In this document: one piece after another, positions 22,834 through 25,761 of the stretch
How the letters are laid out: every line of letters starts with the position of its first letter
How positions within the stretch are numbered: position 1 is the stretch's first letter
DNA from: Escherichia coli
Lineage (GTDB): Bacteria > Pseudomonadota > Gammaproteobacteria > Enterobacterales > Enterobacteriaceae
DNA length: 64,000 nucleotides
Assembly (NCBI RefSeq): GCF_965641715.1
Contig: NZ_OZ282453.1
Strand: one strand, 5' to 3'
Program-made: the position numbers and the translations under genes
Notes under the pieces: model-generated
The model's database searches: none
The model's input: only the letters and a program-made list of their open reading frames with translations
What the model was told of the DNA's origin: nothing

Positions 22834-23121
22834 TTAATCTGCTTTCTGTATTTCAGCTTCTGAATCCATACAAATAATTTCGATATAGGGTTCATCGCCA
22901 TTAACCTGGCGTGCCTTTTCAGCTTCGCTAATGATTTCTCGTACGGTCTGGTACGGAAGTTCCACAAGCAGTCGCGTGCCGTTCAGATAAACGTAAGTGG
23001 CTTCGTCGGCTCCGTTTTTACCCGCCGGAGTTACTCCGTCAATAGCGGATGCACGTAATAACAGTTCACCGCGAAAATCAATAAAACGGATAAATACACC
23101 TTGTGCATGGTCTTTGGTCAT
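22834..23121 (-). CDS. Hypothetical early protein; start moved to internal ATG 23121
   Basis: Track ORF 22834-23235 overlaps the upstream gene by about 100 nt; the internal ATG removes the overlap. Confidence 0.4.
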   Translation of the reverse strand: MTKDHAQGVFIRFIDFRGELLLRASAIDGVTPAGKNGADEATYVYLNGTRLLVELPYQTVREIISEAEKARQVNGDEPYIEIICMDSEAEIQKAD

Positions 23122-23131
23122 AAAGCACCTG

Positions 23132-23473
23132 TTATAAATCAGCCTGTTTAATAAAACTTTGCCCGCGAAGCAGACGATCAACCGTGCGAAGTGCTTCGTA
23201 TAATGTGAAATCCTGCCCGAACTGATTGTCGCCACTGCTTAGAGCAAAAATGCGGTTTCCGGTAAACGGATTGCGTGGGCATTTGTGGATCACGATTCCA
23301 GCTTTCTCAATCAGCCAGGCATGCTCGCCGATTTGTTTTACTGGGTAGCCATCCGGCGTTGCATGTGTATCACTCAGGCTGTAGCGGATGTTGCTGCGTG
23401 ATGCACTGGTAGCAAAACGGTTAGCGTGGCGTTCTGCACCATTGCGAAAGCGTGAATTACGTTGCTGTTTCAT
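23132..23473 (-). CDS. Hypothetical early protein
   Basis: 113-aa track ORF. Confidence 0.45.
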   Translation of the reverse strand: MKQQRNSRFRNGAERHANRFATSASRSNIRYSLSDTHATPDGYPVKQIGEHAWLIEKAGIVIHKCPRNPFTGNRIFALSSGDNQFGQDFTLYEALRTVDRLLRGQSFIKQADL

Positions 23474-23474
23474 G

Positions 23475-23582
23475 TTAAAGACTCTGTACAGATTTAATTA
23501 TTCCGGCATAGAGGCCGAACTCAAAATATTTGCGATTAAATCGCATCGCATTGTTTTCACGTTTTGCGGACTGCTGGTTCAT
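23475..23582 (-). CDS. Unannotated 35-aa basic ORF (MNQQSAKRENNAMRFNRKYFEFGLYAGIIKSVQSL)
   Basis: My own translation; GGAGG 8 nt upstream of the ATG; its TAA stop lies 1 nt before the ATG of the 113-aa ORF. Confidence 0.3.
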   Translation of the reverse strand: MNQQSAKRENNAMRFNRKYFEFGLYAGIIKSVQSL

Positions 23583-23725
23583 TTTCGTTTGCCTCCGCAC
23601 ATGAGAATTGCGCCGCTTAAGAGGTAACCGAAGTTAATTGATAGTATTACAATTAACATAAGGTCCAATTTGTCCATGCCACACATAATTACCCTCATTG
23701 CAGTAGTTGCGGGTTGTCAGGTTTC

Positions 23726-23932
23726 TCACCCGATAAACCAGATAACAAACGCTATAAACATCGCCCCAATAGCTGCCGGGAAAAGTCCTTTGGTATAAGC
23801 GGCGATATATTCAATGCTGAGTTCAATAAAGCGTTCTTCATGTCCCGTTAACTTGCGAAACAAATAGATCTCTATTACGCCTATCTCAATAAAAACAAGG
23901 GTCAGAATGGCGCTGATGATATGGCTGGTCAT
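23726..23932 (-). CDS. Small membrane protein
   Basis: 68 aa with two hydrophobic segments; immediately downstream of cox. Confidence 0.5.
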   Translation of the reverse strand: MTSHIISAILTLVFIEIGVIEIYLFRKLTGHEERFIELSIEYIAAYTKGLFPAAIGAMFIAFVIWFIG

Positions 23933-23938
23933 TTATGA

Positions 23939-24226
23939 CTAAAGTCCCAGCCACAACAACCATGCGTCGCGGCGTTCTTTCGGTTGCTCAAAAAACGCTT
24001 TGCGCATGCCTTCGTTAAATGCTGGCAGATATACCCAGTTTTCTGATGCACGCGTCTTTACTGAACCTGGTTTCACAAAGTCAATTGTCGGTAGCTTTGC
24101 TGCGTCAATCATGGTTCTGACTGTGGATTCCTTGCGGCCGATCATCTTGGCGAATAGTTGATATGGCACCGCTTCAAGTGGATATGGTGCTACCTGAATG
24201 AACCCCCCAAGCTCTGATTCGCTCAT
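23939..24226 (-). CDS. cox: Cox-like regulator/excisionase
   Basis: 95 aa; PYQLFAKMIGRKESTVRTMID...LPTIDFV...NWVYLPAFNEG...RDAWLLWLGL parallels P2 Cox as I recall it; divergent from C. Confidence 0.8.
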   Translation of the reverse strand: MSESELGGFIQVAPYPLEAVPYQLFAKMIGRKESTVRTMIDAAKLPTIDFVKPGSVKTRASENWVYLPAFNEGMRKAFFEQPKERRDAWLLWLGL

Positions 24227-24339
24227 TGTGGTAATCTCCCTAATTCGTTCGAATGGCTCAAAATGGCTTATATCGGCTTATTTGAGTGTTTTTATGTTTG
24301 TGCCCGATGTGGCATGTTGCGATGGAGGATATGCCCGAT
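24227..24339. promoter_or_regulatory. Lysis-lysogeny switch region (divergent early and repressor promoters) with candidate operators
   Basis: Between cox and C; three GGCT(C/T)A repeats at exact 10-bp spacing (24255, 24265, 24275); two palindromes TGCCCGAT(G/A)TGGCAT (24301-15, 24332-46). Confidence 0.5.
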
Positions 24340-24660
24340 ATGGCATCTTTGTCAAGCATGGGTGAAAAATTTCGCCTGATTCGTGAAGCAGAAGGTATGA
24401 CCCGCCAGGAGTTTGCGGATTGTGTTGGGCTGCCTTATGGGACGGTAACTAACTATGAGGTGAGGGGGAAGCAAGTAACAGAGGGTGCCTTACTTAAGGT
24501 TACGAAACACCCTAAATTTAAGAAGTATGCTTATTGGTTATCAACAGATGAAACGATGCCGGAGGTCGGGCAAATTTCTCCGGCTCTCTCTCTTGATGGT
24601 TCCTGCAATTCGGAGGGAGATCGCGTTTCAACCGAAAAAATCCAAAAATTATCCCGCTGA
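24340..24660 (+). CDS. C-type immunity repressor (HTH); start among in-frame ATGs 24322/24331/24340
   Basis: HTH segment QEFADCVGLPYGTVTNYE and ...KYAYWLSTDETMPEVGQISPAL resemble P2 C as I recall it; same strand as int. Confidence 0.7.
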   Translation: MASLSSMGEKFRLIREAEGMTRQEFADCVGLPYGTVTNYEVRGKQVTEGALLKVTKHPKFKKYAYWLSTDETMPEVGQISPALSLDGSCNSEGDRVSTEKIQKLSR

Positions 24661-24756
24661 GGCCAGAAAACTGGTTAGACCTGCTTTTTGTCTGGTCTGA
24701 TTATTGCTGGAAAGAGGCTGGAGAAATTGTAGAGCGGTTCATTGGAGGGCTTCGTA

Positions 24757-25761
24757 ATGTCGATTAAGAAGCTCGAAGATGGTCGTTATTTGCTGGACAT
24801 CAGGCCGAACGGACGCAAGGGAAAGCGCGTGCGTAAGGTATTTGACAAAAAATCGGTAGCGGTGGCCACTGAACGCTACATCATGGCGAACGCTGAAAAG
24901 CGGGAATATATACAGGGCTACCGTGATCGTCGAACGCTAAATGATTTGCTTGAGTTGTGGTGGATGTATCACGGCCAGCACAGGCGTAAGGCGGAAGAAG
25001 ACCGAAAACAACTGCGCAACATAATCAATGAGCTTGGCGCTGATATGCAGGCTGTGGATCTTGATAAGCTGAAAATTATCGCGTGGCGTTCTCAAAAGAT
25101 AGCTGAAGGATTGAAACCGTCATCTGCTAACAGGTACATGAATCGGTTATCCGGAATGTTTACCGTGCTGAAAAAAATAGGTCTTTGGGATGCAGAACAT
25201 CCAGTAAGGGGAATTTCTATTCTTTATGTATCTCCACGAGAAATGGCGTTCCTGTCACAGAAGGAAGTGGCGCTATTGCTCGATACACTGGAGGGCGACT
25301 ACTGGCGTGTTGCGCTTTTGTGTTTAAGCACAGGGGCGCGCTGGAGTGAAGCTTGTAAGCTTCGTGGTGAACAGATAGTTCATAACCGTGTAACGTTTCT
25401 TGAAACCAAAAATGGCCGGAAGAGAACAGTGCCAATTTCGCAGGCAGTTTGTGAGGCGATCAAAACCAGAGAAACAGGCGGCTTGTTTGAGGTGAAGTAC
25501 CGGGAATTCTGCCTGGCGCTGAAAAGAGTTAAGCCCGACTTACCAAAAGGCCAGGCTGCACATGTGCTGCGGCATACGTTCGCCAGCCATTTTGTGATGA
25601 ACGGAGGAAACATTATTGCGCTTCAGAAGATTCTTGGTCACGCAACCATTCAGCAAACAATGGCATATGCGCATTTTGCACCGGATTACCTGCAGGATGC
25701 GGTGGCCCTTAATCCGCTGAAAGGTGGCGTAAGTGTCCACGCAGTGTCCACGGGGGATTAA
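24757..25761 (+). CDS. int: Tyrosine integrase, P2 type
   Basis: MSIKKLEDGRYLLDIRPNGRKGKRVRKVFDKKS... parallels the P2 Int N-terminus; ATG 24757 preceded by GGAGGG; C-terminal catalytic region HVLRHTFASHFVMNGG...LGH. Confidence 0.9.
   Translation: MSIKKLEDGRYLLDIRPNGRKGKRVRKVFDKKSVAVATERYIMANAEKREYIQGYRDRRTLNDLLELWWMYHGQHRRKAEEDRKQLRNIINELGADMQAVDLDKLKIIAWRSQKIAEGLKPSSANRYMNRLSGMFTVLKKIGLWDAEHPVRGISILYVSPREMAFLSQKEVALLLDTLEGDYWRVALLCLSTGARWSEACKLRGEQIVHNRVTFLETKNGRKRTVPISQAVCEAIKTRETGGLFEVKYREFCLALKRVKPDLPKGQAAHVLRHTFASHFVMNGGNIIALQKILGHATIQQTMAYAHFAPDYLQDAVALNPLKGGVSVHAVSTGD

Follow-up and report, generated by a model that had tools for sequence, protein, structure and literature searches.

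In the early operon of a P2-like prophage of Escherichia coli lies an open reading frame of just 35 codons. We consider it probable that this ORF is a genuine small-protein gene of P88-like prophages, carried on the early lytic transcript, with selection acting on the peptide itself. The ORF was found in a window of 64,000 nucleotides (the whole stretch of contig NZ_OZ282453.1 that was analyzed), and the argument for it is a comparative one. Relatives of the ORF occur in five different gene arrangements, and across these there is good evidence from the alignments that the 35-aa frame is a real, conserved small-protein gene whose protein sequence is under purifying selection, because the constraint is specific to this frame and because neither stop codons nor insertions and deletions interrupt its first 27 codons. 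A first-pass annotation had drawn attention to the ORF as a basic, unannotated frame with a strong ribosome-binding site, ending 1 nt before the next early gene. Much of this description stands. The ORF is present at 23475-23582 on the minus strand, its product (MNQQSAKRENNAMRFNRKYFEFGLYAGIIKSVQSL) is indeed basic (pI 10.2, six K/R against two D/E, net charge about +4, 4.1 kDa), it lies with its own Shine–Dalgarno sequence in an early operon (Pe/cox) that begins at cox, and the next gene, reached after a single nucleotide, is DUF4761. The GGAGG is there too, but the spacer to the ATG, given earlier as 8 nt, counts 9 nt.

The locus is the immunity/early region of a prophage that lies integrated beside pdxB and belongs to the P88-like group (Xuanwuvirus, P2 family). 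Integrase, C-type repressor, Cox, DUF4761 and DUF4754 stand in P2-like order, and the region matches Xuanwuvirus P88_4B11 at 99.8% identity and E. coli MDR_56 at 100%. The early genes, all on the minus strand, run from cox through orf68, a hydrophobic 35-aa ORF, the basic 35-aa ORF, DUF4761 and a 95-aa ORF to DUF4754 and further genes, with only weak terminator-like hairpins between them, and an early lytic transcript starting at cox would carry the small ORF (Table 1). Company of this kind is familiar in P2-like phages. Both P2 (orf78 and orf80-83) and phage 186 (fil, dhr) have short genes, mostly of unknown function, between cox/apl and the replication genes, expressed from Pe/pR. As a member of these small accessory early-operon genes of P2-like phages, with database entries as a hypothetical protein, the ORF is known already; it has no sequence similarity by PHROG or Pfam to the small accessory ORFs of P2 and 186, and the analogy with them is positional only.

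Table 1. Features of the prophage early region discussed in the text (window coordinates)
Feature	Position	Strand	Remarks
Integrase	24742-25761	+	HTH repressor also on plus strand
Candidate Pe, TTGACA-18-TATCCT (10/12), upstream of cox	24326..24355	-	Consensus match only; number of such sites equals chance expectation
cox (Cox-like excisionase/repressor), first early-operon gene	23939..24226	-	Annotation and profile matches
orf68, 68-aa two-helix membrane protein	23726..23932	-	phrog_14475
Hydrophobic 35-aa ORF, MCGMDKLDLMLIVILSINFGYLLSGAILMCGGKRK	23579..23686	-	TGA overlaps the ATG of the basic ORF (ATGA 23582..23579)
Shine–Dalgarno GGAGG of the basic 35-aa ORF	23596..23592	-	Followed by CAAACGAAA; spacer of 9 nt to ATG
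Basic 35-aa small-protein ORF	23475..23582	-	ATG 23582..23580, TAA 23477..23475
Conserved core, codons 15-27, F-x-R-x-Y-F-[E/K]-x-G-x-Y-[A/V]-G	23502..23540	-	Family alignment
Junction TAA-C-ATG, small ORF/DUF4761	23477..23471	-	1 nt between stop and DUF4761 ATG (23473..23471)
DUF4761 gene, 113 aa	23132..23473	-	Pfam DUF4761 (PF15958), E 2e-69

The hydrophobic ORF immediately upstream, whose stop overlaps the ATG of the basic ORF, had escaped the first-pass annotation. It has its own GAGGG Shine–Dalgarno sequence and an alternative ATG at 23698. Its product has one predicted transmembrane helix and a C-terminal GGKRK. We think that it is probably a real membrane micropeptide gene, because two other loci (L064/L065) have a 35-aa homologue, with ~60% of residues identical on visual comparison, in which the ATGA overlap with the basic ORF is preserved. 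The GGAGG of the basic ORF is embedded in Gly-Gly codons of this upstream frame. Other lineages of the family have GAGG 8 nt before the ATG, where it overlaps the orf68 stop codon, so that a Shine–Dalgarno sequence is kept before the small ORF across lineages as either GGAGG or GAGG.

Taken alone, a ribosome-binding site followed by an ORF is not beyond chance and is no proof of a gene. The pattern GGAGG-N5-10-ATG with an ORF of at least 30 aa occurs twice in the window, against a mean of 3.4 in composition-matched random sequences. One might then regard the ORF as a chance or remnant frame that is not translated, a leftover in a mosaic junction for example, and it is in keeping with this that PGAP makes no call, that frameshift alleles exist, that the region is a recombination hot spot and that the ORF has no match in Pfam, PHROGs, NCBIfam or the PADLOC defence models, its best PDB match having an E value of 0.84. 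What makes this very improbable is the behavior of the family, in which the Shine–Dalgarno sequence is conserved, purifying selection is specific to one frame and 27 codons are free of stops and indels over seven divergent haplotypes.

Relatives were gathered from DUF4761-anchored IMG/VR loci (n=80), a profile search, exact-protein look-ups and a DNA-pattern scan, and the loci of the five types came from IMG/VR, NCBI, ENA and Logan. The query for a word-indexed protein search was a 41-aa version of the ORF with a GTG start. Among 1.84 billion representative proteins, the profile search returned seven matches, all of them members of the small-ORF family (E 8.5e-20 to 4.8e-7). The family occurs in P88-like (Xuanwuvirus) prophages in five arrangements, which we call types A to E. 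Type A is that of the window: orf68, the hydrophobic ORF, the 35-aa ORF, TAA-C-ATG and DUF4761. A (near-)identical 35-aa protein in the same position, between the hydrophobic ORF and DUF4761, is recorded as P88_4B11 gp43, PhiR44_2 XSB42691.1 and ART17483.1/ART17484.1 (one for each of the two 35-aa peptides queried); all these entries are labeled hypothetical and give no functional information. In type B, represented by Citrobacter phage Shae_phiSM and by the protein cluster P0008, orf68 is followed by 36 homologous codons fused in frame to DUF4761. The Shae_phiSM protein (Shae_044, WOZ57157.1, 152 aa) and P0008 are homologous to the small ORF over their N-terminal 36 aa; identities number 13 in the first 29 residues and take in Y-F-E-x-G-x-Y-A-G. 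Shae_044 has the same place after orf68, but a 1-nt difference after codon 30 fuses it to DUF4761, and it lacks the hydrophobic ORF upstream. Type C (L088, L089) is a divergent lineage in which orf68 is followed by a stand-alone 35-aa ORF (MNKQQQNNETHNTKFCRNYFKHGRYAGKVKSVRSF), TGA-C-ATG and DUF4761. Type D (L090-93, L064/65) has a 62-aa ORF, with an opposite-strand 78-aa gene inserted after codon ~33 and DUF4761 further on. Type E (L094-97, L047, L066, L067) has a 48-aa version followed by an opposite-strand 146-aa gene, and L094-97 have no DUF4761 at all.

The constant companion in these arrangements is orf68, which lies directly upstream in 41 of the 43 ORF-bearing loci; of the other two, one is at a contig end and one has an apparent IS insertion. 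In the window, the hydrophobic ORF comes in between (146 nt). What stands upstream of DUF4761 is highly mosaic, with 42 distinct sequences among 88 loci, and phages Chuche, P88 and many others have no small ORF there. The breakpoints in types D and E and the frame switch between types A and B lie without exception immediately downstream of the YAG motif of the small ORF, a site that looks like a hot spot for moron insertion. The opposite-strand inserts themselves (78 aa, L090-L093 2591-2827, minus strand; 146 aa, L094-L097 2594-3034, minus strand) have no Pfam match on record. They give the small ORF a different C terminus and, in L094-97, stand in place of DUF4761. In L048, an IMG/VR prophage (about 1130-1260), what appears from translation alone to be the 3' end of an IS transposase lies upstream of the hydrophobic ORF, and orf68 and cox are gone.

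Conservation of the frame was the check that the first-pass annotation had proposed, and it comes out clearly in favor of a gene: relatives that differ at ~40% of nucleotides still keep the frame, and purifying selection is clear. Over the first 27 codons, all types can be aligned with neither gaps nor stops. The conserved core carries F15, R17, Y19, F20, [E/K]21, G23, Y25, [A/V]26 and G27, preceded by a variable, Q/N/K-rich N-terminal half and followed by a final six to eight residues that are lineage specific. The reading frame itself (frame 0) is stop-free in seven of seven haplotypes, and stops occur in four of the other five frames. NG86 dN/dS values among types B-E are 0.04-0.39; between type A and the others, dN is 0.38-0.51 and dS is saturated. 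Summed uncorrected pN/pS in frame 0 is 0.23 among types B-E and 0.36 for type A against B-E, with Fisher p values for single pairs of 4e-6 to 2e-3. The other two forward frames give 0.92-1.28, and the codon-aligned antisense frame, an open 79-aa ORF on the plus strand (23388..23627), gives 0.95-1.09. The antisense frame whose wobble positions match also has a low pN/pS, as expected, and is closed by stops. In codons 15-27, the variable sites fall 5/5/12 on codon positions 1/2/3, and synonymous changes occur at Y19, E21, G23 and G27. In the extension within the fused type B lineage, synonymous differences (Sd) number 5-7 of ~21 sites and nonsynonymous differences (Nd) 4 of ~84 sites.

Conserved sequence need not be coding sequence, and we considered whether the conserved stretch might be a cis-acting RNA or DNA element instead, such as an attenuator hairpin, a small RNA or a protein-binding palindrome. 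There is a perfect 6-bp inverted repeat inside the small ORF (TGCGAT-N8-ATCGCA at 23531-23550, followed by the short T-run AATATTTTGA), which was picked out as resembling a terminator on both strands. The window contains a single copy, which is within chance (expected in 32% of shuffles), and the other four family types compared lack it. An Rfam search gave no match, and RNA folding is no better than that of shuffled sequences (z -0.26). The substitutions follow codon periodicity, and we regard a noncoding element as a highly improbable explanation of the conservation.

Within type A, the picture is less tidy. At 21 usable loci, the small ORF has four nonsynonymous polymorphic sites and one synonymous site, a pN/pS of 0.98 on tiny counts; the same measure gives 0.07 for cox, 0.13 for DUF4761 and 0.77 for orf68. 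The value for the small ORF is compatible with relaxed constraint, and the counts are too small to decide. Across the two-ORF cassette (23475-23725), type A has one synonymous change in ~43 sites, against 20 in 75 for DUF4761, and the flanking genes cox (23939-24226) and DUF4761 (23132-23473) both stand at ~0.27 per synonymous site. Because the cassette has next to no synonymous diversity while its flanks have diverged, the comparison suggests that the two ORFs spread recently, by recombination into diverged phage backbones, rather than drifting neutrally for a long time. Broken alleles do exist. Both L007 (E. coli DG343-1) and E. coli TA008 have lost 1 nt at codon 23, as probably has H81 (DG351-2), where the match is 1 nt short. 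In L136, the small ORF is a decaying copy beside a DUF4761 that also has a nonsense codon. A single contig (P0001) has an insertion in an A-run that fuses both 35-aa ORFs. The first-pass annotation had held that disruption of the frame in close relatives would speak against the gene. Taken literally, such disruption is present in a small minority, but it is outweighed by conservation of the frame in far more distant relatives.

The geometry of the junction with DUF4761 had suggested translational coupling, and from that geometry and the apparently weak Shine–Dalgarno sequence downstream we give coupling of the small ORF to DUF4761 about an even chance. The small ORF would be translated from its own GGAGG by ribosomes terminating on the overlapping upstream ORF (ATGA), and its termination 1 nt before the DUF4761 ATG could then lead to reinitiation there. 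Reinitiation would matter most in type A, where the DUF4761 Shine–Dalgarno element appears to have decayed from GGAG to AGAG; GGAG is what is found in Shae-type B, type C, Chuche and P88. Textbook cases of translational coupling are trpE-trpD and trpB-trpA, pairs in which stop and start overlap or nearly abut and ribosomes terminate and reinitiate. The window resembles them in its ATGA overlap, in a stop 1 nt before an ATG, in a downstream Shine–Dalgarno sequence that looks weak and in a Shine–Dalgarno sequence lying inside the upstream coding sequence. Unlike them, it has a downstream initiation region that is unstructured (-12 kcal/mol per 100 nt, z +0.95), and the junction is not shared by all family members: types D and E are uncoupled, type B is fused and type C retains GGAG. 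Coupling through the unfolding of RNA structure at the DUF4761 start was discarded on account of that same unstructured region in type A. Since the region is A/U-rich as well, type A DUF4761 could initiate independently.

The one-nucleotide spacing is itself partly an inheritance from the DUF4761 leader. The last ~25 nt of the 35-aa ORF (AAATCTGTACAGAGTCTTTAAC) are homologous to the untranslated region that holds the DUF4761 ribosome-binding site in Chuche (AAATTTGTACGGAGTTTTTGAT), so that the tail and stop of the small ORF lie in the DUF4761 leader. The T(A/G)A before the DUF4761 ATG belongs to a conserved spacer of that ribosome-binding site, present also in Chuche and P88, which lack the ORF (...GGAGTTTTTGATATG). 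Types A and C both have a stop codon 1 nt ahead of the DUF4761 ATG.

All this invites the thought that the ORF is there purely as a leader, its translation serving to deliver ribosomes to the DUF4761 start and the peptide itself doing nothing. The geometry (TAA-C-ATG and ATGA) would suit such a role, as would the weakening of the DUF4761 Shine–Dalgarno element to AGAG in the only variant with this chain of ORFs and the neutral look of the type A polymorphism. We nonetheless think it unlikely. Against it stand the amino acid constraint specific to one frame, with synonymous changes at the conserved Y19, E21, G23 and G27, and the retention of the ORF both in type D, where an inserted opposite-strand gene splits it from DUF4761, and in type E loci that have no DUF4761. 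Type C, moreover, keeps GGAG before DUF4761. The preferred reading is that of a small-protein gene in which selection would act on the peptide itself, beyond the mere fact of its translation.

The fused proteins of type B raise a different question, namely whether the ORF is the N-terminal part cut off from a longer DUF4761 protein, separated by a gene-splitting frameshift or rejoined at a low level by a +1 shift at CUU-UAA-C. The natural in-frame fusion in type B points that way, and a +1 shift in type A would yield 149 aa, about the length of the type B protein (152 aa). The two proteins also begin alike (MNKQQRNS for the small ORF and MKQQRNS for DUF4761, with 11 identical nucleotides in type B), and both have RFR..NG. 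In three loci (L061, L073 and L077, about 1490-1520), DUF4761 begins MNKQQRNSSQQRF directly after the orf68 stop and Shine–Dalgarno sequence, which could reflect a deletion between the two similar 5' ends that removed the body of the small ORF and joined what was left. The likeness of the two N termini is not significant, because both are K/R/Q/N-rich, and the small ORF as a partial duplicate of the DUF4761 N terminus was kept as a possibility only, shuffle tests giving z <= 2.5. Against a detached piece, the fusion is the derived state, since the tail frame ..K-S-V.. is common to types A, C and D and type B differs from it by a 1-nt deletion after codon 30. The 35-aa ORF has no Pfam DUF4761 match. 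The model, from position 1 to 105, covers residues 9-113 of the downstream protein only and thus ends at the N terminus of the short form, and most of 145 DUF4761 homologues are 112-117 aa long. Add the particulars of the would-be shift site, and a detached piece of DUF4761 becomes, to our minds, quite improbable.

Those particulars are best seen beside the +1 programmed frameshift site of prfB (RF2), which is CUU UGA C with an AGGGGG-type stimulator 3 nt upstream. The junction in the window reads AGT CTT TAA C ATG, and the DUF4761 frame is open for eight codons before its ATG. Type A therefore shares with prfB a CUU codon, an in-frame stop followed by C and a +1 frame that enters the downstream protein; a slippery CUU-U, a stop and an open +1 frame are all present. 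It differs in that the stop is UAA and not UGA, and in place of a strong stimulator of the AGGGGG type 3 nt upstream there is only AGAG 1 nt upstream. Nor is the site conserved, for type C has the nonslippery UUC UGA C, and the tails of types D and E are unrelated. We rate it a long shot that CUU-UAA-C acts in type A as a prfB-like shifty stop, with some +1 slippage producing a 149-aa fusion of the small ORF and DUF4761. Were it true, one locus would give the peptide, DUF4761 and their fusion, and recoding would recreate what Shae_phiSM has fixed genetically.

What might the peptide do? On the reading we prefer, it would most likely be a cytoplasmic, basic, hairpin-forming microprotein that acts with orf68 and/or DUF4761 in early lytic development. 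The genomic associations suggest such a partnership, because fusion to DUF4761 in type B points to a common task by Rosetta-stone logic and because linkage to orf68 is nearly invariant; the link to DUF4761 is weakened by the persistence of type E without it. AlphaFold2 predictions for the natural fusion P0008 give a moderately confident alpha/beta core for DUF4761 (pLDDT 77-86) and, at residues 14-32, a low-confidence beta-hairpin (pLDDT 40-46) with no confident docking. Paired rows were part of the multiple sequence alignment for this model, and some of these had been made by artificially joining a small ORF to DUF4761. Fold comparison of the P0008 model gave no convincing match. An AlphaFold2 model of orf68 joined to the small ORF by a GS linker gave no confident structure or contact, with a mean pLDDT of 50 and ~45 for the peptide. 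A full-text literature search returned no paper mentioning DUF4761, and the term Xuanwuvirus was in no title or abstract of the papers that mention it.

The distribution of the family is narrow. None of 100,044 GTDB species-representative genomes had a small-ORF match in a DNA-pattern scan, and tblastn against 50,697 GenBank phage records placed the family in three phages only. The exact 35-aa peptide is present on at least 1,000 contigs, labeled hypothetical protein, and a 226-bp segment of the locus is found in 234 of 5,426 complete E. coli genomes (about 4%), with "none" as the annotation under the match in the 40 listed of these 234. Type B is represented by Shae_phiSM, by the 1,217 sequences of cluster P0008, by 10 of 36 pattern-matching IMG/VR loci and by ~76 of the 5,426 E. 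coli genomes, so that the fused form adds about 1.5% of complete E. coli genomes to the ~4% with the stand-alone ORF.

The claim that the ORF is unannotated needs splitting. It is true of RefSeq/PGAP, whose record for this locus (L001) has an annotation gap at both 35-aa ORFs, and false of GenBank phage and strain records and of UniRef. The P88_4B11 record has gp43 (YP_009877432.1) for the basic ORF and gp42 for the hydrophobic one, both hypothetical; the PhiR44_2 record likewise annotates both as hypothetical, the basic ORF being XSB42691.1. GenBank strain records and UniRef hold ART17483.1 and ART17484.1, one for each of the queried 35-aa peptides and again hypothetical, and the 41-aa GTG-start version of the basic ORF is on record as ECOK1_2558. 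For E. coli genomes of type B (L134, L135 531-638), PGAP starts DUF4761 at an internal ATG, giving 116 aa and leaving the conserved in-frame extension of 36 codons unannotated. The annotators of Shae_phiSM and metagenome gene callers chose the 152-aa fused form.

The practical weight of the finding thus lies in annotation, RefSeq systematically omitting the basic gene and the neighboring 35-aa membrane peptide. It has no bearing on a major open question as it stands. The family offers, within a P2-like early operon, a small-scale case of genes fusing and splitting and of a recombination hot spot. It is also a convenient test case for asking whether microproteins work with their neighbors, here the uncharacterized DUF4761 protein and orf68.

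In the 95-aa gene downstream of DUF4761, the frame (window 22834-23235, minus strand) is open for ~38 codons before the ATG and overlaps the 3' end of DUF4761. Four database proteins (P0093, P0109, P0113 and P0116), which may be real indel alleles, assembly errors or something else, are different 211-aa fusions of DUF4761 to orf95, in which the frame switches at four different points of the overlap; their sources, where named, are Salmonella enterica or E. albertii/E. coli.
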